Source of the DNA: a bacterium
Lineage (GTDB): Bacteria; Muiribacteriota; UBA9980
Assembly (NCBI GenBank): GCA_029571125.1
Contig: JAKPTH010000501.1
Coordinates: forward strand, 1 to 55,615
Direction of reading: 5' to 3'
Length of the DNA stretch: 55,615 nt
Shown here: piece after piece, positions 4,865 through 49,707 of the stretch
Layout: each line of letters opens with the position of its first letter
Position numbering within the stretch: position 1 is the stretch's first letter
Notes under the pieces: model-generated
Databases searched by the model: none
The model's input: only the letters and a program-made list of their open reading frames with translations
Told to the model about the DNA's origin: nothing
Position numbers and translations under genes: made by a program

Positions 4865-4873
4865 TTGAAAGAA

Positions 4874-4975: not shown

Positions 4976-6619
4976 TTAGAATTTAACATTGAGGTCTAAA
5001 CGAACCTGATCGTGGTCAGCAGGAGCACCAACGCCGAGAGCTGTGTAGTCAGCATCGTCGTCTTTGTATTTGGTTGTTCTGTAACGAAGTTTGAAAGCTG
5101 TGTTTTCTCTGTACTGGTAGGTACCGACTAACTGAACGGTGTTCTGATCGAAATTGCCAGAAGCGCCAACAGCGTTTTCCGTTTTAGCTTTTAAATCTTC
5201 ATACCAAACATCCATGTGTAATTTGTCGGTAGCCTTGTAGCCGAGGATTACGCCGGCGATTTTTGAATTATTGAATGAGTCAGCAACAGCTGCGCCAGCT
5301 TTTGACCATGTGTTGCCAGCAAGGCCGCAGTTAGCGTATACGTTGTTTCCGTAGTAAGCTGAATCGCTGTAGTCATCATTGATACCGAGAACTAAGAAGT
5401 CTTTCTGTCTTTCCTGATAGAGAGCTGTTAAGTCCCAACGGTTGTTGATTGTCCATTCAACGCCGAGTTTGAAAGCCTGGCCTTTCCAGTTGTTAGCAGC
5501 GTCGATATTGTTGATAACGTAGAGCGATTTGTCTTTTGCAGGTTTCTGTTCAAGGAATTCAGCGAAAGCAACAACGTGTTTGCCCATTTTGCCATCGAGG
5601 GTTAAACCGTACATATCGAGAGCCGAGTAAGCGTTGCCAGTACCGCTGATGCGGTCGTAAGCGCTGGATTTGGTGAAATAGTAAGCGCCGGCTGCAACTT
5701 GTTTCCAGGCGTGGTCAACTGTGAACAATTTGGCATCGAGGCCGTCATTGTTGCCACGAGCTGCGAAATTGTTACGAGTGTCGAGAGCTGCGAATGCGAA
5801 ATTAGTATTTTTGTGAGCTTTCTTTATTAAGAGACCGTCAACTTCGTTATCGAGAACGAGGCCTTTGCCTATTGTTAAGGTGAAACGGCCGGCTCTGAAG
5901 TTATCGATTAAGCGACCGCCGCCGAAATTTCTGACGTCGATGTAACCTAAGAAGAGGTCACGGTTCGTGTCAGCCGCGGTATCGTTGTTGAAACCAGTGT
6001 TAGGGTTGTTCTGGGTCGCGAAACCGTGAACTGTTGAGTCCTGTAACGATAAGAACGTAGAAACGTTATCGTCAACCTGACCTTTGATGTTCATGCGGAG
6101 TCTGTTTACGAATCTTGAATTACCAAGATCAGCAACGCCAGCGTTTAAGTCTTTGTATTTGTTGTCTTCGAAACGAACGCGGTCTTCGAGAGTAACTCTG
6201 AATTTGTTGAAGCCGTTCTTTTTGAGGGTGTCAACGTCTGTTTTCAGAGTGTCAACGTCGTTACGGATAACTTTTACTTCTTCTTCGAGAGCCTGAACTT
6301 TAACGCCGAGGAGCGCGAGTTCGTCTGCGAATTCGATTGTGAGTTTCTGTAAGGTTTCGAGGTCAGCGCCGCCGAATTTTTTGTCTATTAAACGAGCTAC
6401 TAAAAGAGCCATTTCGTATCTGGTCATAGCTTTTGCGCCTTTGAATTTGCCGTCAGCATAACCTTCGAGAAGGCCTTTTGCAGCGAGGCTGTTAACTGCT
6501 TCGTAAGCCCAATGTTTTTTCGGAACGTCCGAGAACGGACCTGCGAATGCAGCACCGATTGCTGTTGCCAAGAATACCACTACAACTACTAATAATAAAC
6601 CTTTTTTCATTATTTTCAA
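4976..6619 (-). CDS. SLH-domain outer-membrane porin (OmpM/Mep45-type OM-to-peptidoglycan tether)
   Basis: Signal peptide, then an SLH motif (FSDVPKKHWAYEAVNSLAAKGLLEGYADGKFKGAKAMTRYEMALLVARL). A coiled-coil follows (LEEEVKVIRNDVDTLKTDVDTLKK), then a long beta-rich region ending in ...RLDLNVKF with a terminal Phe typical of beta-barrel OMPs. SD AAGGGGGA. Confidence 0.75.
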   Translation of the reverse strand: MKIMKKGLLLVVVVVFLATAIGAAFAGPFSDVPKKHWAYEAVNSLAAKGLLEGYADGKFKGAKAMTRYEMALLVARLIDKKFGGADLETLQKLTIEFADELALLGVKVQALEEEVKVIRNDVDTLKTDVDTLKKNGFNKFRVTLEDRVRFEDNKYKDLNAGVADLGNSRFVNRLRMNIKGQVDDNVSTFLSLQDSTVHGFATQNNPNTGFNNDTAADTNRDLFLGYIDVRNFGGGRLIDNFRAGRFTLTIGKGLVLDNEVDGLLIKKAHKNTNFAFAALDTRNNFAARGNNDGLDAKLFTVDHAWKQVAAGAYYFTKSSAYDRISGTGNAYSALDMYGLTLDGKMGKHVVAFAEFLEQKPAKDKSLYVINNIDAANNWKGQAFKLGVEWTINNRWDLTALYQERQKDFLVLGINDDYSDSAYYGNNVYANCGLAGNTWSKAGAAVADSFNNSKIAGVILGYKATDKLHMDVWYEDLKAKTENAVGASGNFDQNTVQLVGTYQYRENTAFKLRYRTTKYKDDDADYTALGVGAPADHDQVRLDLNVKF

Positions 6620-29000: not shown

Positions 29001-32000
29001 CTTTGGCGACACGCAGGGCACGGTTAAATTCGGGGCGACAGCCGCATCAGAAATAATATCATGGACGAATTCTAAAATAATAGTAAAAGTACCGGCAGAT
29101 GCGGTTTCCGGAAGTGTTTCGATAACATCTACCGGCGGCGCGGTTCATAACGGCTTCAATTTTGAAGTGGTTAATATAACACAGATAACACCTTCAGCAG
29201 GCACTTACGGCGATGAAATAACTATTTCGGGATCCGGGTTCGGCGTGACGCCCGCCATCGGTAATATCGTTAAAATAGGCACAATAAGCGTTTCTGAAAT
29301 TAAATCATGGTCGGATAGAGAAATTAAATTTATCGTGCCAGATAAATCGGTCAGCGCAAAAACGTCTGTCACGGTCAACGGCATTACGACTAACGGAGTC
29401 GATTTCAAAGTCATCGCTATTTCATCGTTATCACAAAATTACGGTCCTATCGGCATGCCTATTACAATTAAAGGTTCGGGATTCGGAGGCGCTCAAACTG
29501 TTAATAATTCGGTTAAATTCAGCGGCGCCGCCATTGCCGAAATCGATATAATCAAGTGGAGCGATACTGAAATTATCGCTAGAATACCGGCTTCGGCGGC
29601 AGCCGGCAGCGGTTCAATTCATATTTCATCGAACGGCGTTGCCAGCAATTCGGTAACTTTTGAAGTGACGCATATTAATTCGGTCAATCCGGTTCAGGGC
29701 ACCGCGGGTACTCAATTAATCATTTACGGCACCGGATTCGGCCCGTTGCGCGGATCTAATAATGTCATATTTAACTCGGCGAGCGCCGCCTCTATAGTTT
29801 CATGGGTAAACGATAAAATTACCGTGGCGGTTCCGGCTAATTCCGTTTCAGGCTTGCTCGAAGTGGTTATATCCGGCGTTAAAAGTAATTCTAAAGCTGT
29901 AAGCATTATTTCGATTAATTCACTATCAGCGATACGCGGCGCGGTTAATACTCAAATATCGGTAAACGGTACCGGCTTCGGCGGCACAAAGGGCGCAAAT
30001 AAAATATTAATAAATAATATCGAAATGCCCGTAGCTGGAGGTCTATGGACCGACAGCATGGTGCGTGTAACGATACCCGATAACGCCGTGTCAGGGTCAA
30101 TAAAAGCTGTCATTAATGATTTCGAAACTAACGCAATGCCGTTCGAAGTAGTGCGCTTTACGGTCGATGCTCCGATAGCGCCTGCATACGGCCCAACCGG
30201 CACGCTAGTTACGATCAACGGCTCAGGATTCGGCGCGACCAAAGGATCTGTCGCATTCAACGGCATCGGTGCGGCTTTAATCAATGAATGGAAAGATAAT
30301 AAAATAACCGCGACAATTCCAGCCGGTTCATCGTCCGGGCCTGTAACGGTTACTAGCGGCGACATAACATTATCATCGTCTCAGGCGTCTTTCAAGTTAA
30401 CTAAAATAAATTCCATAACACCATCCTACGGCCCGATCGGATCTACAATTAAACTCAACGGCGAAGGTTTCGGCGCAACGCAGGCCGGTAATTTAATTAA
30501 ATTCAACGGCGCAACGGCTTCAACGGCAGATATAGTATCGTGGAACGATAACTTTGTCGAGGTAAAAGTGCCGCATGGCGCTTCAAGCGGCGGCGTCAAA
30601 GTAAATATATGGGGTATCGATTCTGCGGCCTTTGATTTCACCGTCACCAATATAGCCAGTTTAGTGCCCGCGTACGGCCCAATCGGAACGCCGGTCACGA
30701 TCAACGGCGCAGGGTTCGGCGCGATCGCCGGAACCGTTAAATTCAATACTGCGACGGCTATCGTCGCGCCAGGCAACTGGAGCGATACCGCGATATTAAC
30801 CAGCGTTCCTGACGAAGCCCAATCCGGCGCCGTGAGCGTTAGCATATCCGGTATTTTAAATACCTGGACAGGGTTTAAAGTTACTAAAATCACCGCCATA
30901 GACCGTGAATTCGGGCCGGTCGGATTAAAAGTGACGATTAGCGGCGAAGGGTTCGGACCCGCCAGAGGCGGTAACGGCGTTTATTTCAACTCGCTGCCGG
31001 CGGCGGCTGAAGATTATTTTCTGTGGTCGGATGATTCGATAATCGTTAAAGTGCCGGCTGGAGCATCGAGCGGTAATATCAAAGTTAAGATCGGCGATTT
31101 ATATAGTAACGATAAAAGCTTTAAAGTATCGACGATAACCTCGCTCCTGCCTGATTATGGGCCTGCCGGAACAGTCGTCGATATCAACGGCACTGCTTTC
31201 GGCGCCACGCAGGGAACGGGACGCGTTCTTTACGGCGGTGTGAGCCTCGCGTCGGGCGATATATATTCATGGAGCGATACAAAAATAAGGGTTAAAGTGC
31301 CGGCCGGATCCGCCAGCAGCGCTTTTACCATCGAAGTAAACGGCAAGGCCACCAATCAATATAATTTTTTCATCACTAAAATCGACTCGATCGATAAGCT
31401 GAAAGTAACCGCCGGCGAGGTCATTAAAATTTACGGCTCCGGCTTCGGACCGGTTAAAGGCAACACCAGAGTGCTTTTTGACGCGCTAAATTCGGCGGCC
31501 GTCGAAGCGGTCGTCAATCAGGGCAACTGGAACAGGAATACCGTCGAGGTAATAGTTCCTTACGGCGCGGTGTCGGGTAATTTGCGCGTGGAAATGAACG
31601 GAATTACATCGCAAGCTTATGCATACCAGGCGCTTAATATTTCTTCGCTCACGCCGTTTGCCGGCACGGCGGGCCAGGAAGTGACCATAACCGGCTCGGG
31701 TTTCGGAGCGTTCCAGGCGGCCGGCGACACGGTCAAATTTGGCACCACTCCGGTCGAATCTAACGATTACCTCGGCTGGACCGATACGCAGATAAGGGTC
31801 AAGGTGCCGCCATTTGCCGAAAGCGGCGGCGTTACGGTGACCGCTGGCGGCATTACAAGCAACGGTTATCTATTCAATATAGTAAAGATCAGTTCGATCG
31901 CACCCAATCCGCTGAATACCGGGATCGATATAACCGTTTCCGGCAGCGGTTTCGGCACGACGCCTTCGGCCGTAAGCGTTAAATTCAACGATATCACCGC

Positions 32001-33288
32001 CGGCATCGTATCAGAATTATCCAATACTTCATTCAAAGTAAAAGTGCCCGCAAATACGGTCAACGGCAATCTCAGAGTGACGGTCAACGGCATAACGAGT
32101 AATGAAATTTCGTATAAACTGCTTAAAGTAACTACAGTAACGCCGGCATTCGCCAAACGCGGCGATGAAATAACTATAACCGGCGAAGGTTTCGGAGCGT
32201 CACAGGGCGTTAACAGCGTTAAGATAGGCGCATTTGATCTAACCGTATCTGTTTGGAGCGATACCGAAATTCGCGGCAATGTAGCCGCCGGAACACTTCC
32301 GGGCTATTTACGCATCGTGGTCAATAACGTCGAAAGTAATAAAGTATGGTTTGAAACCCAACTTAACTATAACTACATTTCTCAATTCGGCGGAACGGGC
32401 GCCGGCGATTCGCAGTTCAACGCCGCGGCGGACATAGCGCTCGATAGCGCTGGTAATATCTGGGCCGCCGACGCCAATAACCATCGCGTGCAAAAATTTA
32501 ATTCGGCCGGCACTCTTCTCGGCTGGATCGGGCGGGACAATACCGGCGGCTCTGGCTGGCACAACCCGCTTTCAGGTAAAACTTCAGTAAGCGGTTCCGG
32601 CAATTCAGAATTCGACACGGTGACGGGAGTCGCGGTCGATTCCACTAATAACCTGTACGTTGTCGATTCAGGCAATAAAAAAATCAAAAAATTCGATTCA
32701 AACGGAGGTTATATTAAAACATTCGAAACCCAGGCGTTGAGCATTGCGACCTTCTCGTCACCGTCAAAATTAGCCGTAGATATAGATTCTAATGTATATG
32801 TATCCGATTCGGTCACCAATAAAATCTTACGGTTTACATCTGACGGCAGTTTTGAAGTTGAATTCGGCGGGGCCGGCAACGGCAGCGGCCTGTTCAACGG
32901 CATATCGGGCATCGCAATATCCGCCGATAAAAAAATATTTATCGCCGATACCAATAACCATCGCGTACAGGTATTCGACGCTAACGGCATTTTCGTAACT
33001 TCCTGGGGCGGCTACGGAACCGGCAACGGCAAATTCAACGCCCCGGCAGGCATAACGGTCGACGGTGCGTCCAATGTATATGTGGCAGATACTTTCAATA
33101 ACCGTATACAAAAATTCACGCCGACGGGCGACTATATTCTAAGTTTAGGCGCTTCCGGCGCGGGCAATGGTCAGTTCAACAGGCCTTCGGGCATAGCGGT
33201 CAATATAGTACCGAGCACTTCGGCCGACACGATTTTCATCGCCGATAAAAATAATAACCGCGTGCAAAAATTTTTCAGGGAAAATTGA
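26080..33288 (+). CDS. giant (2402 aa) secreted/possibly lipidated surface protein: CarboxypepD_reg-like + 3 Big_2-like + 19 IPT/TIG + 6-bladed NHL propeller
   Basis: Single uninterrupted ORF. Signal peptide ending LIVIFTQGC (possible lipobox). SD TAAGGA. Domain evidence is given in the three sub-features. Confidence 0.9.
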   Translation: MKQNIKSQTRSAALSLALMLIVIFTQGCVSGGGGFNNSGGTPPVTVNYNTTVSGYLYDDSISSPALYAGLAASRSVIIVAEKKQYTVPTDGAGFFKADIELLNASSTVIIKFQKKDKTVVSGEYIFEKGGVYCLNALIEGGTRLKVNGDKLFTFSKVEHPDNLKIEIKKVLDERQKTATAVTRVTGRVVVTALLGGENNPPAGVINTEEAPSIPIAGVLASLSSGQSAATDSNGYFNIACDLKAGNYSISFKKIGYPDKIVNFTVEAKDYSLASVNFFAEMESGLKSLTLSKQNDNMSENSTYNLSTVKAIASYSDGATREVAVTWTASEGGINNSIFTPPAGKKGLVVLTAKYVEGAKSQTAVLTISVNALLNSLTLSKYSETIEANVPYDLRTVKTFASYSDGTTREVGVNWQTDRGSVSGFNYIPPAGYLGEVIFTASYTEMQITKKASFNLRISRVVKTLTLSKTYDETTVGSVYKLAEITASVNYSDKTSRVITPVWSYNGLVLDEQRAFLAPAIPQNITLTASHSEDGISATAVIDLKVKPLITALSKYIGVPGEKITITGLGFGTTRGDSLVKFNDKYASDLDIESWSNTQITLKVPADSIPGPIAVIVNHIQSDGVNFDVSHIVSITPSTGTAQTMVTITGKGFGSSQGANKLKFGDIDTTDIISWSNTKIVARVPANAQYGKVFVEINGLRTNGISFGLTSIFAISPAIVKPGDTITITGAGFGETQGMAGSVKFNDTSASYIKKWSDTHIETIVPQDVKSGYLTVTAGGITSNRFKYDMTSISGLVPAFGFAGDWVEIMGAGFGDSQIGSSITFNGMPASVIDSWYNDIIKVKVPAGAATGKVKVKINNIEYISDNNFELTSISSINPHYGPAGTVVDIYGTGFGEARVGRIIKIGATEINAITSWTNNKITVIIPATAISGTIKLISGASETNAGNIFNVTNIVSITPVRGVIGTIVTINGSNFGDTQGTVKFGATAASEIISWTNSKIIVKVPADAVSGSVSITSTGGAVHNGFNFEVVNITQITPSAGTYGDEITISGSGFGVTPAIGNIVKIGTISVSEIKSWSDREIKFIVPDKSVSAKTSVTVNGITTNGVDFKVIAISSLSQNYGPIGMPITIKGSGFGGAQTVNNSVKFSGAAIAEIDIIKWSDTEIIARIPASAAAGSGSIHISSNGVASNSVTFEVTHINSVNPVQGTAGTQLIIYGTGFGPLRGSNNVIFNSASAASIVSWVNDKITVAVPANSVSGLLEVVISGVKSNSKAVSIISINSLSAIRGAVNTQISVNGTGFGGTKGANKILINNIEMPVAGGLWTDSMVRVTIPDNAVSGSIKAVINDFETNAMPFEVVRFTVDAPIAPAYGPTGTLVTINGSGFGATKGSVAFNGIGAALINEWKDNKITATIPAGSSSGPVTVTSGDITLSSSQASFKLTKINSITPSYGPIGSTIKLNGEGFGATQAGNLIKFNGATASTADIVSWNDNFVEVKVPHGASSGGVKVNIWGIDSAAFDFTVTNIASLVPAYGPIGTPVTINGAGFGAIAGTVKFNTATAIVAPGNWSDTAILTSVPDEAQSGAVSVSISGILNTWTGFKVTKITAIDREFGPVGLKVTISGEGFGPARGGNGVYFNSLPAAAEDYFLWSDDSIIVKVPAGASSGNIKVKIGDLYSNDKSFKVSTITSLLPDYGPAGTVVDINGTAFGATQGTGRVLYGGVSLASGDIYSWSDTKIRVKVPAGSASSAFTIEVNGKATNQYNFFITKIDSIDKLKVTAGEVIKIYGSGFGPVKGNTRVLFDALNSAAVEAVVNQGNWNRNTVEVIVPYGAVSGNLRVEMNGITSQAYAYQALNISSLTPFAGTAGQEVTITGSGFGAFQAAGDTVKFGTTPVESNDYLGWTDTQIRVKVPPFAESGGVTVTAGGITSNGYLFNIVKISSIAPNPLNTGIDITVSGSGFGTTPSAVSVKFNDITAGIVSELSNTSFKVKVPANTVNGNLRVTVNGITSNEISYKLLKVTTVTPAFAKRGDEITITGEGFGASQGVNSVKIGAFDLTVSVWSDTEIRGNVAAGTLPGYLRIVVNNVESNKVWFETQLNYNYISQFGGTGAGDSQFNAAADIALDSAGNIWAADANNHRVQKFNSAGTLLGWIGRDNTGGSGWHNPLSGKTSVSGSGNSEFDTVTGVAVDSTNNLYVVDSGNKKIKKFDSNGGYIKTFETQALSIATFSSPSKLAVDIDSNVYVSDSVTNKILRFTSDGSFEVEFGGAGNGSGLFNGISGIAISADKKIFIADTNNHRVQVFDANGIFVTSWGGYGTGNGKFNAPAGITVDGASNVYVADTFNNRIQKFTPTGDYILSLGASGAGNGQFNRPSGIAVNIVPSTSADTIFIADKNNNRVQKFFREN
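26923..27717 (+). repeat. 3 tandem Big_2-like Ig repeats (~87 aa each) within the giant CDS
   Basis: Recurring L(K/N/K)(S/T)LTLSK...Y.L..V.A.ASYSDG.TREV.V.W... pattern. Confidence 0.6.
27721..32358 (+). repeat. 19 tandem IPT/TIG repeats (~81 aa / ~244 nt each) within the giant CDS
   Basis: Nineteen occurrences of I.SI.P..G..G..VTI.G.GFG..QG...V.F......I.SW.D..I...VP..A.SG.V.V...G..SN...F.V. I counted the G(F/N/A)FG-type motifs one by one. The copies are diverged at the DNA level. Confidence 0.8.
32371..33285 (+). repeat. 6 NHL repeats (beta-propeller) at the C-terminus of the giant CDS
   Basis: ADANNHRVQKFNSAG, VDSGNKKIKKFDSNG, SDSVTNKILRFTSDG, ADTNNHRVQVFDANG, ADTFNNRIQKFTPTG, ADKNNNRVQKFFREN. 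Confidence 0.8.
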
Positions 33289-37982: not shown

Positions 37983-39638
37983 ATGATTAAAGAACCTCAA
38001 GGCGCATTAAACGAGCCGCCGGCCGCGGCGCAACTTCAAATTTCCGCATGCGAAGACCTGTTCAAGATAGAGATCGAATTCTTGAAATCGTTCGCGCATA
38101 ATCCCGATTTTGCGGGGCTATACGCATTAAACCTCAATTTAATGCCGTCTAATTTTCAGTCGTCTTTAAAAACCAGGTTTATTTATTCGGCATTACTGTC
38201 CCTGTATAACGAAAACCGTACGATTAATTTTCAAAACGCTCAACTATACATGAAAGACCAGCTGCATCAGCAGCAATCTCATTTTGAAATCGCGGGCGCG
38301 CTATGCGAAGATATCTTTAACCTGACCGGCAAAGCCGGCGAATGCCCTATAGAAACAGACGTCAAAGCGCTCATTTATAAAATCAAAGAAAACAGCCTCA
38401 GAAACGAGTCTAAAAAGCTGCTCGCCAGCTCTATGAATAAGCTCAATAACGACAGGGGCGATTACGTTAACACTATCAAAAAATGCGCCGAATCCATAAA
38501 CACTCTGCTTGAAAATTCTAATCTTTCAGGTGAATGCAGTTACGCGCCCGACGCGGTCCAGACAAATATAGACCTCGAAATCGCAACCGCAAAAAACAAC
38601 CGCCCGTTCTGCGGCCTCGACACCGGTTTCGAGCTTCTCAACCAGGCCATAAACGGCATAGAAAACGAAATGTATCTAATCGGCGCGGCCAGCGCTATGG
38701 GTAAAACAACTTTCGCCACGCAGCTTTCATTTCAAATACTTAAAAATAATCCCGACGCGAACCTTATCTTCTTTTCGCTCGACCAGTCGCAAAAAGACAT
38801 ACTGGTCAAATTCATATCAGAAGCTTCCGGCGTGCCCGTCAAATATATAAAATGCTCCAATCCCCGCAACGAAAGCCTCGATATAAAGAAAAAAGAAGGC
38901 ATTTCCTTCGTAACATCGCTTACTAAAAGAATGCGCATAGTGGACGAAAGCCATGGCGAAATAACTATAAAGGATTTCAAGAATATCATCAGAAAGCATA
39001 AGCTCGAATTTCCCGGCAAGCCCCTGGCCGTCGTGGCAGACACCATTTCAGCTATAAGGCCTATGGCGCGTTATAACGATAAAGCCAACGAAATCAGCGA
39101 CATACTTTCCGAAATAAAAACCCTCGTGCGAACCGAAGAATTCTCTCTGGTGGCCACTTTCAATCTTGACGGCGGCGCCGAAATAAAAAGGCCCAAACGC
39201 GAAGACCTGGCCCGGATGCCCGCTTTCATTTACCAGCCTTACGTCACCATGACTCTATACAGCGATTTCATATTCAATTTCGAAACCCCTTTGCTCGAGT
39301 GGGAATGGGGAAGCTCCGATCTCATGGTGCCTATCGTAGAACTCGAAATAATCAAAAATAAAATGAGCGGAAACAAGGGCCGCATATTTTACCGCTACCT
39401 CGACTCACTTGCGTCGTTTCGGGAATGCGTCGAGCTCGAAAACGAAAACTATAACGCTATGATAGAAAACATAGAACATTTCGAGCATAAAAGAGGGAAC
39501 CAGCCCATCGCGCCCATAGCCCCTCCTCCGCCCCCTGTGCGCAATATACGCAGCGAAGGCAAAAGCGGCACCGCCGAAAATGATTCGAACGCCAGAAATA
39601 AATTAAAAGACGCGGATAAAAACGAAGACATAGTCTGA
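37983..39638 (+). CDS. divergent DnaB-family (RecA-fold) helicase-like protein with a Pro-rich basic tail
   Basis: LDTGFELLNQAINGIENEMYLIGAASAMGKTTFATQLSF (DnaB C-domain entry plus Walker A), LAVVADT (Walker B-like), ELEIIKNKMSGNKGRIFY (compare KQRNGPTG). The SG.IEQDAD region is not conserved. The tail reads PIAPIAPPPPPVRNIRSEGK. Confidence 0.55.
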   Translation: MIKEPQGALNEPPAAAQLQISACEDLFKIEIEFLKSFAHNPDFAGLYALNLNLMPSNFQSSLKTRFIYSALLSLYNENRTINFQNAQLYMKDQLHQQQSHFEIAGALCEDIFNLTGKAGECPIETDVKALIYKIKENSLRNESKKLLASSMNKLNNDRGDYVNTIKKCAESINTLLENSNLSGECSYAPDAVQTNIDLEIATAKNNRPFCGLDTGFELLNQAINGIENEMYLIGAASAMGKTTFATQLSFQILKNNPDANLIFFSLDQSQKDILVKFISEASGVPVKYIKCSNPRNESLDIKKKEGISFVTSLTKRMRIVDESHGEITIKDFKNIIRKHKLEFPGKPLAVVADTISAIRPMARYNDKANEISDILSEIKTLVRTEEFSLVATFNLDGGAEIKRPKREDLARMPAFIYQPYVTMTLYSDFIFNFETPLLEWEWGSSDLMVPIVELEIIKNKMSGNKGRIFYRYLDSLASFRECVELENENYNAMIENIEHFEHKRGNQPIAPIAPPPPPVRNIRSEGKSGTAENDSNARNKLKDADKNEDIV

Positions 39639-41147: not shown

Positions 41148-41393
41148 CTTCGTTCATTCGAAATTGCCGTCCTATTATTCTCAAAAAAGCTTATCGATTA
41201 AACTTTTAAAGATGCGTTTCATGAAAAAATTGTGAAAAAAATCTTGACTATACATGATTAAAAGTGTATCATTAGAAAGCTTACTTATTATTTTTAAACC
41301 GTTATTTATCGTTATCGAACGTTTTCTTTTTCGTCTTTTCATATTTTGTTGAATGATAATTTATTTTCAGCGTTCGGGCCTGGACCCGGACAC

Positions 41394-41429
41394 GCCATAA
41401 TTTATGGCTTTTCGAATTTTTCATTTTTT
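41394..41429 (+). terminator. terminator-like hairpin inside the leader of the MgtE_N/CBS gene (possible attenuator)
   Basis: GCCATA-ATT-TATGGC followed by TTTTCGAATTTTTCATTTTTT, 20 nt before the AGGAGG SD. The stem is only 6 bp. Confidence 0.3.
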
Positions 41430-41448
41430 CGCTTTCAGGAGGTGTGTA

Positions 41449-42801
41449 ATGGCTGACGGCAGAACCGCGACGGTTGAACAGATAAAAAAAAGCCCCGTGC
41501 TGAAGGATTTCAACACATTTTTCCTTTCCGAGATCCTGAACGTGAAAGTCTACGATAACGGCGACAAATTTATCGGCTACATAGACGATATCGCCATAGA
41601 CGCGTCAGAAAACATACGCCACCCTTACGTTTCCGCGTTTATCGTCAGGCGCGGCGAAAATATTACAGCTTACGAATATTCTTCTTTCGTAGAATACCGT
41701 TACGACTATTTCGAGCTGGCTCCTTTGCCCGTCGTGCTGCCGCTAAAGCTTACCGAAGAAGGCGAATACGAAAGCGACACCGAAATACTTTTAAAACGCG
41801 ACATACTAGACAAGCAAATAGTCGATACGTCCGGAATGCGCCTGGTGCGGGTCAACGATATAAAACTCACCTTCGTTAAAAACGGAATAGTCACCATAGG
41901 GGCCGATATAGGCCCTACCGGCCTCATGCGCCGGCTCAGCCTCAGCCGCATATATAAAGCCGTTGCCGCGCTTTTTAATAAAAAAATACCCGACCAGATA
42001 ATATCATGGCAGTTCGTCGAACCTATAGGCACCACGCATAAAAATAAAATTAAGCTGGTCGTTCCTTACGCAAAACTTTCGCTGCTTCATCCGGCCGACA
42101 TCGCCGATATCATCGAAGAACTATCGGTACAGGAAAGCGCCGAAATATTGAAGTCCCTCGACGAAGAAACTGCGGCTGAAACACTCGCGGAAATTGAAGA
42201 GCAGGACCTGCAGATATCGCTTATAGAATCGCTCGGCACCGAAAAAGCCGCCGATATATTAGATATGATGCCTCCCGACGAAGCGGCCGACATACTCGGC
42301 GACCTTTCGGAAAAGCAGGCCGAAGAAATCCTTTCCGACATGAACTCCCAGGGCGCCGAAGAAGTCCGCGAGCTTATGAGCCACGACGAAGATACCGCGG
42401 GCGGCCTTATGACCACCGAATATATTTCGTTCCCCGAAACGTTCAACGTGGAGCAGGCACTTTCGGAATACAGGCTCATAGCGCCTAATATAGAAATGGC
42501 CTATTATCTTTACATAGAAGAAAAGGGCGGCTACCTCAAAGGCGTAACAACCCTGAAAGACCTCGTAGTGGCTAGACCTTACCAGAAACTAACCGAAATC
42601 ATGAACCGCAAAGTTTCGTTTTGCCTTTTAAACGAGCATAAAAAAGACGTGGCTGAAAAGATCGCCCGTTACAACCTGCTCGCAATCCCTGTGGTAGACG
42701 AAAACGACGTCATGAAAGGCATAATAACTTTCGACGACGTCATGGACACCATAATAGAAATCAACGAAGAGCTTCCGCACTTCTTAAAAGGCTCTGAATA
42801 A
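41449..42801 (+). CDS. soluble PRC-barrel x2 + MgtE_N + CBS-pair protein (MgtE cytoplasmic module without the membrane domain)
   Basis: Start moved to ATG 41449 (AGGAGG 6 nt upstream). LHPADIADIIEEL...ETLAEIEE...AADILDMMPPDEAADILGDLSEKQAEEIL (MgtE N-domain acidic helices), then two CBS motifs. The ORF stops at ...PHFLKGSE with no TM segment. Confidence 0.7.
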   Translation: MADGRTATVEQIKKSPVLKDFNTFFLSEILNVKVYDNGDKFIGYIDDIAIDASENIRHPYVSAFIVRRGENITAYEYSSFVEYRYDYFELAPLPVVLPLKLTEEGEYESDTEILLKRDILDKQIVDTSGMRLVRVNDIKLTFVKNGIVTIGADIGPTGLMRRLSLSRIYKAVAALFNKKIPDQIISWQFVEPIGTTHKNKIKLVVPYAKLSLLHPADIADIIEELSVQESAEILKSLDEETAAETLAEIEEQDLQISLIESLGTEKAADILDMMPPDEAADILGDLSEKQAEEILSDMNSQGAEEVRELMSHDEDTAGGLMTTEYISFPETFNVEQALSEYRLIAPNIEMAYYLYIEEKGGYLKGVTTLKDLVVARPYQKLTEIMNRKVSFCLLNEHKKDVAEKIARYNLLAIPVVDENDVMKGIITFDDVMDTIIEINEELPHFLKGSE

Positions 42802-42809
42802 GGTTTAAC

Positions 42810-44105
42810 ATGCTTAATAAATTGAAACACAAATGGAAACAGATACTTATATTCCTCTCGCTCGTCGGCCCCGGCATAATAACCGGCAACGTAGATAACG
42901 ACGCGGGCGGCATCGCCACGTATTCCATCGCGGGCGCCCATTACGGCTACGCCATGCTATGGACGCTGATTCCGGTCACGATACTTCTCATATATACCCT
43001 CAACGCGAGCTACCGCATGGGAGTGGCCACAGGGCAGGGCCTCGGCGATCTCATCCGCGAAAAGTTCAGGGTAAAAGGCGCGTTCATACTGCTTTTCCTG
43101 GTTTTTTTCGCCAACCTCGGCACCACTACATCTGAATTTGCAGGCATTTACAGCAGCATACAGATCATGGGCATAAATTTTTCAAACGATTTCCCGCCGC
43201 TTCAAAGCAAGGCGTTTTTGACTATTCTCACTTACCTGTTAACCGTATTGATGGCAGTTTTTGTATGGACGATAGTCGTGAAGGGCACTTATAAAATGGT
43301 CGAACGCGTCTTTATTTTTTCTTGTTTTTTCTACCTTTCATACGTTTTTTCGGCTTTTTACGCCAAACCCGAGTGGAGCGAAGTGTGGCGCGGCTTTTTC
43401 ATCCCGACCATAAAATACGAAAGCGAGTATATATTCGATCTCATAGGCGTCATAGGAACCACCATCACGCCGTGGATGAATTTTTACATGCACGCCACCA
43501 TGCTCGAAAAAGGCATCACCGCTAAAAGTTACTATATAAGCAAATGGGACGTTGTGATAGGCAGCATCATGACCGACATAGTAGCCTTTTTCATGATAGT
43601 CGCCTGCGGCGCTACGCTTTTTCAGAAGCATATCAGGGTGGAATCAATCTACGATATAGGCCAGTCGCTCATTCCGATAGCCGGAAGCTACTCGTCGCTT
43701 CTTTTCGCGGCCGGGCTTTTTAACGCGTCGGTCCTCGCGTCGGCCGTTCTCCCGCTCGCTACGGCCTATGCCATATGTGAAACTTTCGGATGGGAAATAG
43801 GCATAGAAAAAAGTTTCAACGAAGCCAAGATGTTCTATTCGATATTCACTTTCATGATAGTAATCGGATGCTCGCTCGTTTTAATACCCGGCATGCCGCT
43901 TTTATTCATCATGCGCCTCTCACAGGTCGCAAACGGAATCCTTCTGCCCATTTTTCTTTTTTACTTAATCACGATCGCTTCCGATAAAAAAACCATGGGC
44001 GAATTCGTATTCTCGAAATTCGAAAAAAGCTTCGGATGGTTCTCCACTGTGATTTTGACGATTTTGAGCGTCATGCTCGTGTACCAGTCGCTCGCCGGCA
44101 ACTGA
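42810..44105 (+). CDS. NRAMP/SLC11-family transporter with non-canonical metal-site motifs (NRMT-like)
   Basis: GPGIITGNVDNDAGGIATYS has DAGG where canonical NRAMPs have DPGN. GVIGTTITPWMNFYMH has GTTITPW where canonical NRAMPs have GA(T/I)VMPH. About 11 TM segments. The start is 8 nt after the stop of the MgtE_N/CBS gene. Confidence 0.75.
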   Translation: MLNKLKHKWKQILIFLSLVGPGIITGNVDNDAGGIATYSIAGAHYGYAMLWTLIPVTILLIYTLNASYRMGVATGQGLGDLIREKFRVKGAFILLFLVFFANLGTTTSEFAGIYSSIQIMGINFSNDFPPLQSKAFLTILTYLLTVLMAVFVWTIVVKGTYKMVERVFIFSCFFYLSYVFSAFYAKPEWSEVWRGFFIPTIKYESEYIFDLIGVIGTTITPWMNFYMHATMLEKGITAKSYYISKWDVVIGSIMTDIVAFFMIVACGATLFQKHIRVESIYDIGQSLIPIAGSYSSLLFAAGLFNASVLASAVLPLATAYAICETFGWEIGIEKSFNEAKMFYSIFTFMIVIGCSLVLIPGMPLLFIMRLSQVANGILLPIFLFYLITIASDKKTMGEFVFSKFEKSFGWFSTVILTILSVMLVYQSLAGN

Positions 44106-44132: not shown

Positions 44133-45008
44133 CTATTTCATCCACATTTCCGGCACTTTATAGCATTCGCCGCCGGCCGGCTTATTGCCGCCCGCATAGT
44201 CCTGCGCTTCTTTTTCCGAAGTGAAGTATTTAAATTTTTTAAAAAAGGCCATGCCTTCTTCCGATTTCATATAGTCTATAAATTTTTGAGCGAGCGCCGG
44301 TTCTTTAGCGCACGTGGTCACCGCGACCGAAAGATAGCTCAGCCGCGATATTTCTTCGGTTTTCAATTTTACGGTTTCGATTTTTTCAGGGTTCCAGTGT
44401 TCGAATACGCTCCATCCGATGACCGCGTCGGCCGACCCCATAACGATTGCGTTAGCGACCTTTTCACAGCTTTCAACATAAGTCAGCAGCTTGTTTTTAA
44501 ATTCGGCCTTTTCTCCGGCGGAAAAGTTTTTTTCCGCGAGCTCCACTCCGAATACGCCGAGGCATACGTTTTCAGGGTTGGCTATAACGGCCCTTACGTC
44601 TTTTCTTAAAAGGTCTTTCAATCCGTATATTTTTTTGGGGTTGCCGCGCGCCACGTTCAGCGACGGAACCAGATAAACGATTTTAGCCTCGCTGGTTTCG
44701 ACTATTAACTTTTCGGCGCCGGCTTTGACTATGAAATCAACCGAACCCGGAAAATAAATATCGCCTTTTTTAGATAATTTAAGCTGCGAAAGCAGAACGC
44801 CTGAACCGCCGTAGATAACGTCGGTCTTAACGCCCGTCTTTTTCGAAAAAGCCGCCGCGAGTTCTTCGAACGGCGGCTTGGAAGCGACGCCGGCATAGAT
44901 CAAAAGCGATCCGCCGCCGTCTCCGGCCAGAGAATAATTATAATCGAATACTGGAAAAATAAGGGAAATGCATGCCAGAGCAATAAATAAAAAACGCCCA
45001 ACTAACAT
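44133..45008 (-). CDS. ModA/TupA-like periplasmic oxyanion (molybdate/tungstate)-binding protein
   Basis: Start moved to ATG 45008 (GGAGG 6 nt upstream). Signal/anchor FLFIALACISLIFPV; VIYGGSGVLLSQLKLSKKGDIYFPGS. No permease or ATPase gene is adjacent. Confidence 0.6.
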   Translation of the reverse strand: MLVGRFLFIALACISLIFPVFDYNYSLAGDGGGSLLIYAGVASKPPFEELAAAFSKKTGVKTDVIYGGSGVLLSQLKLSKKGDIYFPGSVDFIVKAGAEKLIVETSEAKIVYLVPSLNVARGNPKKIYGLKDLLRKDVRAVIANPENVCLGVFGVELAEKNFSAGEKAEFKNKLLTYVESCEKVANAIVMGSADAVIGWSVFEHWNPEKIETVKLKTEEISRLSYLSVAVTTCAKEPALAQKFIDYMKSEEGMAFFKKFKYFTSEKEAQDYAGGNKPAGGECYKVPEMWMK

Positions 45009-45126
45009 ATAACGCCTCCAAAAATTTTTAATCGTTACACGAATAGTTGTATCATTTTTTATTTTAATTGTCAATAGCTAATTTTAAAAAAGATTTCATT
45101 ATGTTAATTTTACATTAATAAAAAAA

Positions 45127-45960
45127 TCACATTTTGCTTCTTAAATAAACGAGTTGATCGAAATAATTGACGTTTTTATTATTGTCGCTGATGATAAAGC
45201 GGAACCATACACCTATGGCCCTGCTGATATCGGTAAACCCCACTTCGGAGCCGTTGTATTTGCCTTTATAAGTAGCTTTAGCGATCATTTCGTCTTTTTT
45301 ATCGAGCGTAACCGCGTCGTCGAGCATTACGTTCATGTAATAATTGTTATCTATAACGAAAAATTTGCTTTCTCTTTTAACCACGCCGACACCTACGACT
45401 GGAAATTCGCTTTCTTTTAAAACGCCTATGGTATTGGCGGTTAAATTGTCCGCAAAACTCTTTAAAAGTATTCTATCTTCGGCGCCGCCGCCGGCCTTCG
45501 CGCCCGGCCCGGGATCCGCGTCGGCCTGGCTTCTGGCAAGGGTCAGGGCCTTAATTTGCTTTCCGTTGACGTTCTGATCGGTAAAATAAAAGCTGTATGT
45601 GATATAATCGTAATCTATCGTATCGCTCGTAAGCGGATCGGCGCCCGCTTTAACTTCTTTGACATGCTTGAGCGTCATGGTAACCGCGTCTGCCGTTTCT
45701 TCGAAATTAGTTACCGCCGAGGAGCTTCTGACGTCGAACTCGAAACGCTGAAGCGCAAGCCGCGCCTCCCTGAGGTTATCGCCTTTCTGAAATAAATTTT
45801 CGGCCTGGCGGCGGCTGTGAAATACGAATTCATTGAAAACCAGGAACAGAAGCGAAAAAATCGCCACGCCTACCATAATTTCGACTATGGTAAAAGCTTT
45901 GCGGCCCGAATTTGCGGCGGCGGAATATTTTTTATCCGCGTTTTTATATAAATAATTCAT
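45127..45960 (-). CDS. pseudopilin / type IV pilin-like protein with prepilin N-terminal motif
   Basis: GRKA-FTIVEIMVGVAIFSLLFLV: Glu at +5 and a hydrophobic helix. The -1 residue is Ala rather than Gly, and the leader is 22 aa. Confidence 0.65.
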   Translation of the reverse strand: MNYLYKNADKKYSAAANSGRKAFTIVEIMVGVAIFSLLFLVFNEFVFHSRRQAENLFQKGDNLREARLALQRFEFDVRSSSAVTNFEETADAVTMTLKHVKEVKAGADPLTSDTIDYDYITYSFYFTDQNVNGKQIKALTLARSQADADPGPGAKAGGGAEDRILLKSFADNLTANTIGVLKESEFPVVGVGVVKRESKFFVIDNNYYMNVMLDDAVTLDKKDEMIAKATYKGKYNGSEVGFTDISRAIGVWFRFIISDNNKNVNYFDQLVYLRSKM

Positions 45961-46020
45961 ATTCTACCTCTAAATATATAAATACCAGCCGGATGCTTCA
46001 AGCCCGGCGTTCGACGGAAT

Positions 46021-46635
46021 TTAAGGTTTGGTTACTATAGTGAAAACTTTAAATTCATATTCTTTGTCGGGTTTATCGGGCTCGACCCACTTGACGGTCA
46101 CGTTGATCTGTATCCGCGACATCATTTTTTCGTACTCCGGCCTTTCCTTGGGATTAGCCACCGGCGGCGGAGGCGAAGCGCTGTCGAATACCATTTCGGG
46201 AAATTTCATCTTTGGAAAGCTTTTTACGGGGTAAAACGCCACCGCTATATCTATTTTATGTTTTGGGTATCCCGGAATCATTCCATAGTCTATGGTTTTT
46301 GTATATTCGTTCCAGTTGGTGCCGATCCCGCCGGGGCTAGCCTCGATAATCAGCCACTGCAAGGAATCATAGCCGCTGTAAACGGTTTTCGGAAACGGCG
46401 GAACTTCCACCATGGAAGAGCCGTGCTTTAGCTGCTCGCTCATAGAAAGCGCCAGCGAAGAGGCTTTTATAGCGCTCAAGCTCTTGACGTTGGCTTTGGT
46501 GGAATACATTAAAATATTTATAAACGGAACTACCGCAATAACGAATATCGCAAACGATATTATTATTTCGGTCAGCGAAAGCCCTCTATTTCGTATGGAA
46601 AATCCGTTTTTCGTAAATTCGTTCGACATCAGCAT
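46021..46635 (-). CDS. pseudopilin / type IV pilin-like protein
   Basis: RNRG-LSLTEIIISFAIFVIAVVPF (canonical Gly -1, Glu +5); SD GAGG. Confidence 0.7.
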   Translation of the reverse strand: MLMSNEFTKNGFSIRNRGLSLTEIIISFAIFVIAVVPFINILMYSTKANVKSLSAIKASSLALSMSEQLKHGSSMVEVPPFPKTVYSGYDSLQWLIIEASPGGIGTNWNEYTKTIDYGMIPGYPKHKIDIAVAFYPVKSFPKMKFPEMVFDSASPPPPVANPKERPEYEKMMSRIQINVTVKWVEPDKPDKEYEFKVFTIVTKP

Positions 46636-46675
46636 AAAAACGCCTCGTTATATAATAAATTTCGTCAAAACTTAA

Positions 46676-47284
46676 TTAATTCGCCGCGGCCAGCTTATTT
46701 TGCAGTTCCAGCTTCACCTTCATGATTTCGCTTTTCGTGCCGGGGTCGTTATCCAGGCCTTCGCATGTTTCTACATATCTTAAAAGCGCCTTGATGAAAG
46801 TTTTTTCATTTCCGCCGATCATACCCAGCATTGCCAGTTTCTGATAAATCTTAAGTTTCATTATTTGATTATCGGGTTCCGCCTTGAGGGCCGCCAGTAA
46901 AGAATCTGCCGCGCGGTCGAAATTGCCGGAAATCATGAACTTCTCAGCCAGAATATACATTTTGCTGGCTTTGCCGGAAGTGGCGCGGACATATTTATTG
47001 TTCATTTCGACGTATTGCTGTGCGCTCTTGCGGCTTTCTTCAGAAGCCTTTCTGGCGGCCACGAACAACTGGTCATACTCCGACGAAGGGTCGAATGACT
47101 GCACGTTGAAAGCGCCGCGCGAAGCGCTTTTACGCACCTGCTCCAGCTCCTCTTCGAGCTTGAGTTTTTTAGAATACTGAGTAGCCTTGGTGGAGGTGCT
47201 TTTTAAAATAAACCTCACGCCGGGTATCACTATGGTAAATATAAATATGACCACGCATAAAGCTATGATAGCCTTGCTTTTCAT
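46676..47284 (-). CDS. membrane-anchored coiled-coil/TPR-like protein in the pseudopilin operon
   Basis: N-terminal TM segment AIIALCVVIFIFTIVIPGV and a TPR-like GNFDRAADSLLAALKAEPDNQ. Confidence 0.5.
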   Translation of the reverse strand: MKSKAIIALCVVIFIFTIVIPGVRFILKSTSTKATQYSKKLKLEEELEQVRKSASRGAFNVQSFDPSSEYDQLFVAARKASEESRKSAQQYVEMNNKYVRATSGKASKMYILAEKFMISGNFDRAADSLLAALKAEPDNQIMKLKIYQKLAMLGMIGGNEKTFIKALLRYVETCEGLDNDPGTKSEIMKVKLELQNKLAAAN

Positions 47285-47337
47285 TTTACCCTTCTTTTAA
47301 AACAATATAAATTGCCGGCCTGTTACGAAAAAATCTT

Positions 47338-49707
47338 CTATTCCCTTTGCTGGATGTAATTATCGGACCTGCTCACGTTATAATTGATGGTGCAGTATTT
47401 TTTGTCGAAATTCTCCTTGTTTTTATCGATCCATTTCTGGAACGGATTGATGATGAGCTTATCAGGATAGTAGTTCTTTTTGTCTTCGTCTTCCCAGTTT
47501 ATTTCCTGGCATGTGAGGTTTCCGAAAATCCCTATGAAGCTGTCGTCGGTGCCGCTAAAAAGCTTGAAGCCGGCCTTTCTACTCTTCATATCTATCATCA
47601 TGCCCTTTTTGCCGTAAAGATACGCGTCGATCCTGACGTACGGTTTGGCCGAAAAATAACTCTGGAAACCGCTGAATAAGCCGCTGTAATATTTCTGGTC
47701 GTACGGATGCGGCGAAAAAATTATCTTTCCGCTTACGCCGAAATCGCTCGCCGCGGCGTCTTTTGTGCCGAGAGCTATAAGCTGGAGGCAGTTGTTGGCG
47801 CCCCTTAAAATATCGTACTGCCTTTCGCTGCCTGGATCGAAAACGCCGTCGTCCGGGTGGCGCAGTATCTGGCCGCCTATAATTATGTTTCCGGTAGCCA
47901 CGATAGCCCCGCGGCCTTTGTAGTAGCCTTCTATCAGCACGTCGCCGTCAACGAAATAAACGCCGTCTATATTTATGGCATATTTAGAGTGCTGCGTGGC
48001 CGCCTCGAATATATTTTTGGACGTGGAAAAATTATACCACGGAAGCTCTTTCACGCACTGGTCGGAGGAGTCGGCCCAGCCCCAGAAAGGCCGCCATACT
48101 ACTTTTTTATATTCCTTTTCGGTCGTAAAAAAAGCCACGTCGCCCGTGAATTTTTTATTTTCAAAAAATTTTTCGTTTGTCGCCGCGTCGAACAATCGCG
48201 GTATTTTCTCGCCTTTCACCGATGCGTCTTTTGTAAAATCTACGGTTTCGGCTATTATATTATGCCTCGCCGCTATTTTTTTGTATGTGTTTTCATCGTA
48301 TAAATACGCGAGCTGGCCGTTATTTCCTATAATATCGCCAGGAACGACGTTGGAGGTAAATTCTGAAAAATCGTAAGGCTCGTCCTGCGGATCAACCCCC
48401 GAAAAGCTCGAAAACCAGCCCTGCTTCATAACCCCGTATCTTCTTTTAACGTCGCCGTAAATCCAGTTATGAACGGTGCTCGAGTTATTGGGTATGCCGA
48501 ACAGGTTGTTGAAACCGCTGGTGACGAAATTAAAAGCCTGAGCGCTCCAGCCTATGGGCGGAAAATGCCCGGTTAAATCGACGTTGCCGCGGCTGCCGCC
48601 GGTGGAAGCTATGATACCGCCAAGCGCTTCGCCCACGGCGGCTCCGAATCCGGTAGGAAAATCCACTTCGCAAAGGCGCCAGTTGCTTTTATTAATGGCT
48701 TCATAAACCGCTCCGAGAATGTTTTCTGAAGTGGCGTTAGCGCCGAGAGGAATGTGCGCTATCCCCGTATGCTGAACGTATTTAAACATCGGCGAATCCG
48801 TATGCTCGAAAAGTTTTTCATCCACTTCTTTGGAATGCATTTTTATGATCATGCTAAGCTGGCCCAGTGAATCCATCATGCTTTTAAAAACGGGGTTCAT
48901 GATCCCTGAGAGGTTCGAAAAATCGCTCCTGGTTTCGTTAAGTTCGACGACGAGCTTGCGGCCGAATATTATGGCTTTGGTTTTGTTATAAGGCGGCAGC
49001 CATTCCACGCCGTTATTAATTACCAGATATTGCGGAACGTACTTAGACGACCAGGTGGGAGTGATAGTGGCGTCGCCGTCCCATCTTCTGGCCTTTATAA
49101 CCTGCTCGTTGTTATCTTCGTTTACCGCGAAAGCGTATCTGGCCATAACCGAAAGATCGCGGTACAATTCGACCTGTTTCTGGACCGTCACGGCCCGTTT
49201 TGCTCCGCGATACTCGCCCTGGCATGTTATGCTCATTATACCGAGCGCGAGGTTGTCGTCCACTTTTTTCTGAAGGTCGAATTTGACTTTTATATGATTT
49301 ATTTTAGCTTCGGGTATCGAAGCTTGTATGCTCGTTTCTATATTGGCCGTCTTGAGTTCGCCCGAAGCAACCCATGAATCGTTAGGATTGTCTTCGGGAA
49401 TGGGATAATCTGCGAAACTGGCGAATGCGCCGAATTTTTTATTGATATCCATGGTCGAATCAGACGAAAGCGGCTGTATGTAATCTGAATATTTGTGGTC
49501 TTTTATAACGTAAAGCGCGTGCTCCACTCCGGTTTCCGCCACGAAATGCGCCACGCTCGCGTCGAGATAATTAAACGACGACGACGATTCCTGCCGCATC
49601 ATCATTATAACTGTATAGCCCAGAAGGAACAAAACCGCCACCATAAAAAGAACGTATGCGAGAGCGAAACCCTTAGCCGGTTTTGATTTTTTTATATATG
49701 CGAGCAT
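47338..49707 (-). CDS. large (789 aa) PilX_N/GspK-like minor pseudopilin, probable tip/adhesin subunit
   Basis: KPAKG-FALAYVLFMVAVLFLLGYTV (PilX/GspK-type N-terminus lacking Glu +5), followed by ~740 aa with no recognised motif. Confidence 0.5.
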   Translation of the reverse strand: MLAYIKKSKPAKGFALAYVLFMVAVLFLLGYTVIMMMRQESSSSFNYLDASVAHFVAETGVEHALYVIKDHKYSDYIQPLSSDSTMDINKKFGAFASFADYPIPEDNPNDSWVASGELKTANIETSIQASIPEAKINHIKVKFDLQKKVDDNLALGIMSITCQGEYRGAKRAVTVQKQVELYRDLSVMARYAFAVNEDNNEQVIKARRWDGDATITPTWSSKYVPQYLVINNGVEWLPPYNKTKAIIFGRKLVVELNETRSDFSNLSGIMNPVFKSMMDSLGQLSMIIKMHSKEVDEKLFEHTDSPMFKYVQHTGIAHIPLGANATSENILGAVYEAINKSNWRLCEVDFPTGFGAAVGEALGGIIASTGGSRGNVDLTGHFPPIGWSAQAFNFVTSGFNNLFGIPNNSSTVHNWIYGDVKRRYGVMKQGWFSSFSGVDPQDEPYDFSEFTSNVVPGDIIGNNGQLAYLYDENTYKKIAARHNIIAETVDFTKDASVKGEKIPRLFDAATNEKFFENKKFTGDVAFFTTEKEYKKVVWRPFWGWADSSDQCVKELPWYNFSTSKNIFEAATQHSKYAINIDGVYFVDGDVLIEGYYKGRGAIVATGNIIIGGQILRHPDDGVFDPGSERQYDILRGANNCLQLIALGTKDAAASDFGVSGKIIFSPHPYDQKYYSGLFSGFQSYFSAKPYVRIDAYLYGKKGMMIDMKSRKAGFKLFSGTDDSFIGIFGNLTCQEINWEDEDKKNYYPDKLIINPFQKWIDKNKENFDKKYCTINYNVSRSDNYIQQRE

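Follow-up and report, generated by a model that had tools for sequence, protein, structure and literature searches.

CorA and MgtE, two channels for Mg2+ uptake, are each equipped with a cytoplasmic sensor of Mg2+ that guards against overload. The NRAMP-related Mg2+ transporters (NRMTs) represent a fourth bacterial route of Mg2+ uptake and have no cytoplasmic domain, which puts in question how overload is avoided in their case. EleNRMT from Eggerthella lenta, for instance, is a monomeric, proton-uncoupled electrogenic carrier with 11 transmembrane (TM) helices and no extramembrane domains (PMC8806188). Shin et al. reported in 2014 that most genes of the NrmT clade adjoin a gene for a homologue of the MgtE N-terminal cytoplasmic domain, forming ‘mgtE-nramp operons’ of which many are under M-box control, and speculated that the partner provides either ‘cytoplasmic feedback regulation of transport’ or chaperone activity (PMC4072509). 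Beyond that paper, we found no later study of the MgtE-like partner in the literature, and the partner is undiscussed in the eLife 2022, eLife 2023 and Cellier 2022 papers. Here we describe such a gene pair on contig JAKPTH010000501.1 of the bacterial assembly GCA_029571125.1 (Muiribacteriota), analysed over its 55,615 nucleotides (hereafter the window), in which a gene for a soluble MgtE-like protein (gene 1) directly precedes a gene for an NRMT-type transporter (gene 2):

41449..42801 (+): gene 1, a soluble protein of 450 amino acids (aa) with a PRC tandem, an MgtE_N domain and a CBS pair, homologous to the cytoplasmic module of MgtE
42802..42809 (+): spacer of 8 nucleotides (nt) separating the stop codon of gene 1 from the ATG of gene 2
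42810..44105 (+): gene 2, an NRMT-type SLC11/NRAMP transporter of 431 aa, recognised by PF01566 and by alignment with EleNRMT

With moderate confidence, we assign this locus to the published ‘mgtE-like / nrmT’ operons, with two genes of which the first would encode a cytoplasmic protein that responds to Mg2+ and regulates the NRMT; such control in trans is plausible but unproven. A preliminary description of the locus had taken the combination for one perhaps not yet characterised, and this implied novelty does not stand: Shin et al. had already found such neighbours to be typical for NrmT-clade genes and had published the feedback proposal (PMC4072509). The gene pairing and the feedback hypothesis are thus theirs, and what is new from the present analysis is the conserved PRC tandem of gene 1, the three membrane contexts in which its module occurs, and the linkage counts in both directions.

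Linkage was assessed starting from each of the two genes. A search with gene 1, restricted to one genome per species, gave 80 loci from Chloroflexota, Dormibacterota, Nitrospirota, Deltaproteobacteria, Firmicutes, Acidobacteriota, Armatimonadota, Coriobacteriia, and Methanobacteriaceae, 4 of which had no room downstream, and the gene 1 homologue is followed immediately by an NRMT gene on the same strand in 66 of the 76 informative ones. A metagenome scan with the NRMT also gave 80 loci, 76 of them informative after 4 were set aside as too short, and a gene 1 homologue is adjacent in 66 of these (upstream in 61, downstream in 5). Three of the five downstream homologues (L101, L122, L128) are convergent, on the opposite strand, while the other two (L151, L163) lie on the same strand, and the linkage therefore survives rearrangement. 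The pairing put forward in the preliminary description is accordingly matched by synteny in both samples. All intact partners are of the NRMT type, mostly with the motifs D-A-G/S-G and G-T-T-I-(A/T/S)-P-(W/Y), and never a canonical MntH; the GTTITPWM of the window is the second commonest TM6 form among them. Among 59 complete pairs the median gap is ~15 nt, and 15 pairs overlap by 4 nt (ATGA start/stop). Among related loci, an M-box riboswitch was found ahead of the gene 1 homologue in 4/17 and 3/20 (7/37), which ties the two-gene unit to Mg2+. Overall, two-way conserved linkage across many bacterial phyla and some archaea strongly supports the view that the pair forms a functional unit.

Three further observations on these loci were set aside. 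Pairwise identities within the two families correlate in a mirror-tree comparison (r=0.56, 60 pairs), which was not used as evidence because co-inherited neighbours correlate anyway. Long open reading frames (ORFs) containing an NRMT (L074, L012, and others), which could be taken for sensor-NRAMP fusions, were rejected as stop-to-stop read-through in high-GC DNA. An alternation between a protein sensor and an RNA sensor is likewise unsupported, as no M-box was found at the 10 partnerless NRMT loci or at the 5 rearranged ones.

The longest ORF for gene 1 extends over 41404-42801 from an ATG at 41404, and we favour the start at ATG 41449 because an AGGAGG lies 7 nt upstream of it and gene callers return 450 aa in independent assemblies. 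Pfam recognises PRC at residues 22-55 (28.2 bits against a cutoff of 21.2, covering profile positions 2-35 only), MgtE_N at residues 213-315 (E=2.4e-26), and CBS at residues 382-435 (8.6e-13), with no match to the pore domain PF01769. The mgtE model TIGR00400 reaches 173 bits, below its cutoff of 232.75, and because its alignment is confined to profile positions 26-257 of 450, gene 1 is without the pore part. The cytosolic domain of Thermus thermophilus MgtE (2yvy) aligns with residues 210-436 (3e-34), spanning the N domain and both CBS motifs, and no TM segment is found in gene 1, for which the highest 19-residue Kyte-Doolittle mean is 1.03. Without PF01769, with TIGR00400 below cutoff and with no hydrophobic segment, gene 1 is not an MgtE transporter. 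An AlphaFold2 (AF2) model built from 46 homologues (mean predicted local distance difference test score, pLDDT, of 78.4) is beta-rich at 23-90 and 112-153, followed by two linker helices, a helical N domain at 207-312, and the CBS pair at 327-441. MgtE structures rank top in a Foldseek search with this model, and nucleotide-bound CBS proteins and ATP-bound MgtE are also among the matches. The resulting parts of gene 1 are as follows:

41512..41733 (+): residues 22-95, first PRC-barrel-like beta domain (Pfam PRC 22-55; AF2 strands 23-90, pLDDT 83-93)
41782..41913 (+): residues 112-155, second beta segment (beta in the AF2 model; the most conserved N-terminal block of the family)
42085..42393 (+): residues 213-315, MgtE N domain (Pfam 2.4e-26; holds E244, D277, and D281)
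42427..42771 (+): residues 327-441, CBS pair (Pfam, 2yvy alignment, AF2, and Foldseek; holds D430, D433, and N409)

The preliminary description had taken gene 1 for an MgtE N domain and CBS pair without a membrane domain, citing the strings ADIADIIEEL and PPDEAADILGDLSEKQAEEIL; both are present, and Pfam, TIGR00400, and hydropathy agree on the assignment. It had also named two PRC-barrel-like segments. Pfam recovers the first of them in the window protein; the second escapes it when taken alone, although it is beta in the AF2 model and is seen in relatives.

Together, the conserved PRC tandem accounts for ~200 of the 450 residues of gene 1. Taken by itself, the second segment (112-155) goes undetected by Pfam in the window protein, whereas two PRC stretches score in relatives. 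Across the family this segment carries the motif RDILDKQIVDxxGxxxVRVNDxxL ... D.G..G..RR, with invariant columns from R117 to R162, and the mean identity of relatives to the window protein over it (0.49) is the top value among the folded domains. Within the soluble family, the segment and the Arg-rich helix that follows (R117-R162) are conserved on a par with the MgtE_N domain. No paper joining PRC-barrel, MgtE, and CBS was found in the literature.

For T. thermophilus MgtE, the cytoplasmic Mg2+ ligands have been defined by mutagenesis and nuclear magnetic resonance (PMC5882242). We mapped these positions onto gene 1 through the 2yvy alignment, and scored their conservation over 60 family members:

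MgtE E59 (Mg7): gene 1 E244; D/E in 59/60
MgtE D91 (Mg4): gene 1 D277; D in 56/60
MgtE D95 (Mg6): gene 1 D281; D in 59/60
MgtE D226 (Mg5): gene 1 N409; N in 47/60, D in 9/60
MgtE D247 (Mg4): gene 1 D430; D in 57/60
MgtE D250 (Mg5): gene 1 D433; D/E in 55/60
MgtE E258 and D259 (Mg2, Mg3, plug helix): gene 1 E440/E441; EE in the window, Arg/Lys in most members

Outside the plug helix, five of the six cytoplasmic MgtE ligand positions are thus conserved in the gene 1 family. The sites that clamp the N domain to the CBS pair look retained, those that couple to the MgtE pore do not, and the kept ligand residues support a retained sensing function in gene 1.

Gene 2 matches the Nramp family PF01566 at 5.4e-82 and aligns over its full length with EleNRMT (PDB 7QIA; E=2e-92, 314 bits), compared with 3.8e-21 for the best MntH and ~4e-21 for DraNramp. 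Judged by these alignments, gene 2 is an NRMT-type NRAMP protein, nearer to EleNRMT than to any MntH. The strings NDAGGI and GTTITPWM begin at residues 30 and 216, respectively, and place the metal site as follows:

42900..42911 (+): TM1 metal-site motif D31-A-G-G34 (D-P-G-N in canonical NRAMPs)
43455..43475 (+): TM6 motif G216-T-T-I-T-P-W222 (T217 equivalent to EleNRMT T224, T220 to A227; W222 replaces the first TM6b His)
Site mapping from gene 2 to EleNRMT: D31=D55, G34=G58, E109=E133, T217=T224, T220=A227, W222=W229, Q372=Q379

In gene 2, the Asn of canonical NRAMPs is replaced by Gly34, the Ala by Thr217, and the Met by Thr220. Among 60 partnered NRMTs, the TM1 site keeps D in 59/60 and the equivalent of G34 in 60/60, the T217 equivalent is invariant, and the Met position (T220 in gene 2) is occupied by T in 32, A in 23, and S in 5. 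At the proton-pathway positions, W222 stands at the first TM6b His and T106 at the TM3 Asp of DraNramp, which we take to be native D131, while the helix-3 Glu is kept as E109. Homology to EleNRMT leads us to expect that gene 2 is a monomer with 11 TM helices and no proton coupling. In EleNRMT itself, T224 is needed for Mg2+ transport (PMC8806188). These results match the earlier account of gene 2 as an 11-TM NRAMP protein starting 8 nt after gene 1, with DAGG and GTTITPW motifs and the replacements Asn->Gly, Ala->Thr, and Met->Thr: the spacer occupies 42802-42809, the PF01566 match is accompanied by an end-to-end alignment with the 11-TM EleNRMT, and residues 34, 217, and 220 are as described.

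A mechanism by which the pair could work can be outlined from these features. Gene 2 would be an NRAMP-related uniporter for Mg2+ (and Mn2+), not proton-coupled and without a cytoplasmic domain of its own, and gene 1 would be a divalent-cation sensor, most likely for Mg2+. At high cytoplasmic Mg2+, ions would bridge the two parts of the module as they do in MgtE, with E244, D277, and D281 on the side of the acidic N domain and D430 and D433 on that of the CBS pair; the bridged, compact module would then dock onto the NRMT from the cytoplasm and restrain uptake. When Mg2+ is low, the module would open and the transporter would be released. We infer metal binding by gene 1, its contact with the NRMT, inhibition at high Mg2+, and docking by the PRC region or the C-terminal tail.

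Relatives of the module extend beyond the soluble form. Residues 1-205 of gene 1 alone match 1046 representative clusters (E<=1e-3), with lengths of ~400-450 aa (soluble), of ~595-656 aa (15 of the best 150), and of short forms or fragments. In L070, P0137, and P0154 (~600-656 aa), a genuine MgtE pore (PF01769) is fused behind PRC, MgtE_N, and CBS, and since the module is joined to a real MgtE pore, it is a bona fide transporter-gating module. The L070 protein (3711-5534), from a Nitrospira metagenome-assembled genome, is a PRC-bearing full-length MgtE with no NRAMP gene downstream; no mention of a PRC-MgtE subfamily was found in the searchable literature. A Collinsella-type variant of 600-622 aa instead continues from PRC, MgtE_N, and CBS into ~185 aa with roughly five hydrophobic helices and no detectable likeness to MgtE (L071 3164-5008, L078 3995-5839, and L079 in Collinsella; also P0139, P0171, and P0206), and in Collinsella its gene ends 8 nt before the NRMT gene. 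We considered and rejected the Collinsella 614-aa protein as a full MgtE, given that its C-terminal 185 aa match no MgtE model in Pfam even at E<=10 and show no similarity to the L070 pore by BLASTP; the Collinsella-type protein could be a membrane-anchored form of the sensor.

Across these contexts, the combination of PRC tandem, MgtE_N, and CBS may represent a portable Mg2+-sensing gate, attached covalently to MgtE pores and to the unrecognised five-helix membrane anchor of the Collinsella type, and non-covalently to NRMTs. Its docking surface would be made up of the highly conserved stretch R117-R162, in the second PRC segment, together with the C-terminal tail, which is usually basic. We put this wider generalisation forward tentatively, and would be unsurprised to see it fail.

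A number of observations weigh against gene 1 as a Mg2+-responsive regulator of the NRMT. Two NRMTs, Ca_c0685 and Ca_c3329, complement Bacillus subtilis without a partner (PMC4072509), and purified EleNRMT transports in proteoliposomes without one (PMC8806188). In the one published co-expression experiment, the Acidobacterium capsulatum pair Acp2976/Acp2977 gave no better rescue (PMC4072509), which constitutes weak counter-evidence because better rescue would not be expected from an inhibitor that acts at high Mg2+. The A. capsulatum NrmT was moreover mainly a Mn2+ transporter (PMC4072509), so that some pairs may respond to a ligand other than Mg2+. Evidence of a physical interaction between gene 1 and the NRMT was found neither here nor in the searchable literature. 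In the window leader, no M-box or other Rfam family was detected at the gathering threshold or at E<=10, and in most members of the gene 1 family the Mg5 ligand D226 is an Asn and the plug-helix acids are replaced by Arg/Lys. No NRMT occurs within the flanks of 10/76 gene 1 loci and no gene 1 homologue within those of 10/76 NRMT metagenome loci, and about half of the orphan NRMT-like genes have DPGG, not DAGG, in TM1. The 10 orphan gene 1 homologues have unrelated genes as neighbours, or a fused MgtE pore (L070), with no recurring alternative transporter. NRMT-like genes without a sensor neighbour (L120, L130, L136, L159, L161) often read N-D-P-G-G, that is, the canonical Pro with Gly for Asn, and L130 holds two tandem NRMT-like genes, one with DAGG and one with DPGG.

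Several of these points would fit two genes that are co-regulated but functionally independent, gene 1 acting elsewhere in a Mg2+/metal regulon, or buffering or chaperoning metal in the cytoplasm as in the second proposal of Shin et al., with no NRMT contact: NRMTs are active alone, the A. capsulatum co-expression had no effect, ~13% of the members of either gene family have no member of the other close by, and the module is also joined to other membrane domains. We nonetheless consider independence unlikely, in view of the very tight linkage, which extends over many phyla and into some archaea and includes translational overlap in 15/59 pairs, its persistence after gene-order changes, and a partner that is always NRMT-type and never canonical MntH; in the sole characterised setting, MgtE, the module is furthermore a gate and not a chaperone (PMC5882242). 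Gene 1 might also regulate the NRMT in response to Mn2+, to adenine nucleotides at the CBS pair, or to a ligand of the PRC tandem, rather than to cytoplasmic Mg2+. This would accommodate the Mn2+ transport of the A. capsulatum NRMT, the conserved second PRC block with no known ligand, the change of D226 to Asn and the loss of the plug sites, as well as the frequent binding of nucleotides by CBS pairs, including ATP by MgtE (PDB 5x9g/5x9h), such structures being among the Foldseek matches. A different signal appears improbable, however, when set against the five of six conserved Mg2+ ligand positions at the MgtE N/CBS interface, the M-box (Mg2+) riboswitches on 7/37 related operons, and the invariance in partner NRMTs of the Thr that is critical for Mg2+ (T217).

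Finally, gene 1 could in principle be a truncated or decaying mgtE that lies by chance beside an NRAMP gene, a reading for which only its superficial likeness to the first 260 residues of MgtE speaks. We attach next to no probability to this reading. The preliminary description had named a frameshift or assembly error as a possible flaw, and none was found: contig L081 is identical to the window over both genes, and two other assemblies (L082/L083) keep both frames intact, with 36 nt differences and 1 aa change in the 450-aa gene 1 ORF and 3 nt differences and 0 aa changes in gene 2. So many nucleotide differences with a single aa change indicate that gene 1 is an intact gene under purifying selection, and not a frameshifted mgtE. 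In addition, a homologue search with gene 1 returned 6010 matches, the top ones of 416-455 aa, the N-terminal region alone matches more than a thousand clusters as given above, and the next gene begins 8 nt after the stop with no MgtE pore sequence downstream. Frameshift, assembly error, and pseudogene are thereby excluded by the intact ORF across assemblies and the thousands of same-length homologues. The closest named relative of gene 1 is a Candidatus Wallbacteria GWC2_49_35 protein (91% identity), and the identical NRMT protein of gene 2 occurs on at least 8 public contigs with the same neighbours. The twelve-fold contrast in divergence between gene 1 and gene 2 in L082/L083, over an 8-nt spacer, may reflect a recombination breakpoint.

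Upstream of gene 1, the following candidate expression signals were identified:

41244..41272 (+): sigma-70-like promoter candidate, TTGACT-17 nt-TATCAT (10/12 consensus matches, the best site of the region)
41273..41448 (+): AT-rich 5' leader of ~176 nt, with an AGGAGG Shine-Dalgarno 7 nt before ATG 41449

The promoter candidate is a consensus match only, and the number of such sites in the region is not above that of shuffled sequences. The fold of the leader is not significant (z-score -1.42). At 41393-41435, just before the ribosome-binding site of gene 1, the leader contains a small hairpin rich in A and U (GCCAUAAUUUAUGGC) with a U-rich tract behind it, too weak to be called a terminator or attenuator.

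Elsewhere in the window, a ModA-like periplasmic binding protein (44133-45074, - strand; SBP_bac_11, TIGR01256 just below cutoff) is convergent with the NRMT gene, 27 nt from its stop, and has no permease or ATPase genes adjoining it. Four genes at 45127-49707 (- strand) encode proteins of 277, 204, 202, and 789 aa with no Pfam matches on record, and a scan of the 789-aa protein was also blank; two of the N-termini in this cluster are prepilin-like (FTIVEIMVGVAIF, LSLTEIIISFAIF), and it may be a divergent pseudopilin cluster, a T2SSE-type ATPase being encoded far from it at 2159-4051. The gene at 26080-33288 (+ strand) encodes 2402 aa, with 15 IPT/TIG repeats and, towards the C-terminus, NHL beta-propeller repeats; its product is probably a giant surface protein. 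A 551-aa protein at 37983-39638 (+ strand) carries a DnaB_C helicase domain (211-411) only, followed by a Pro-rich charged C-terminal tail, and is an atypical DnaB-like helicase.

In itself, the locus is one more clean example of the mgtE-like/nrmT arrangement, with no riboswitch layer, and not a discovery. If gene 1 does act as a Mg2+-responsive regulator of the NRMT, a detachable MgtE-type sensor would answer the question of how NRMTs avoid overload, and one gating module would control two unrelated membrane folds. Should the wider reading of a portable gate hold as well, no LeuT-fold/SLC11 transporter before it would be known to have a cytoplasmic metal-feedback subunit acting in trans, and all published NRMT biochemistry would have used the transporter minus its regulatory subunit. 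Such trans-gating, if true, would be a mechanism of real interest to transport biologists.

The proposed mode of action has a counterpart in the KtrA/TrkA RCK rings on KtrB/TrkH, in which a soluble ligand sensor, encoded beside the transporter, docks on its cytoplasmic face; folds and ligands are unrelated to those considered here, and the analogy is one of working mode only. Compared with T. thermophilus MgtE (2YVY/2YVX; PMC5882242), gene 1 shares the N domain and CBS pair and the ligands of Mg4, Mg6, Mg7, and half of Mg5, but it has no pore and an extra PRC tandem, the plug-helix acids are missing in most of its family, and it would need to act non-covalently on an unrelated LeuT-fold carrier. 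Like EleNRMT, gene 2 has the D/G/T site, the helix-3 Glu, Trp for the TM6b His, and the helix-10 Gln, the difference being Thr220 in place of A227; EleNRMT was studied alone, and PMC8806188 makes no mention of a partner. The operons of Shin et al. come closest. The partner there is described as a ‘small protein’, with PRC-barrel unmentioned (PMC4072509), whereas gene 1 carries the PRC tandem, and the window further differs in being without an M-box, which occurs on a subset of these operons, in coming from a Candidatus Wallbacteria-like genome, and in having Thr, not Ala, at the Met position of TM6. In gene order, however, the window is like those of Clostridium acetobutylicum (Ca_c0685) and A. 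capsulatum (Acp2976-Acp2977), with the MgtE-domain gene directly upstream of nrmT and on the same strand.

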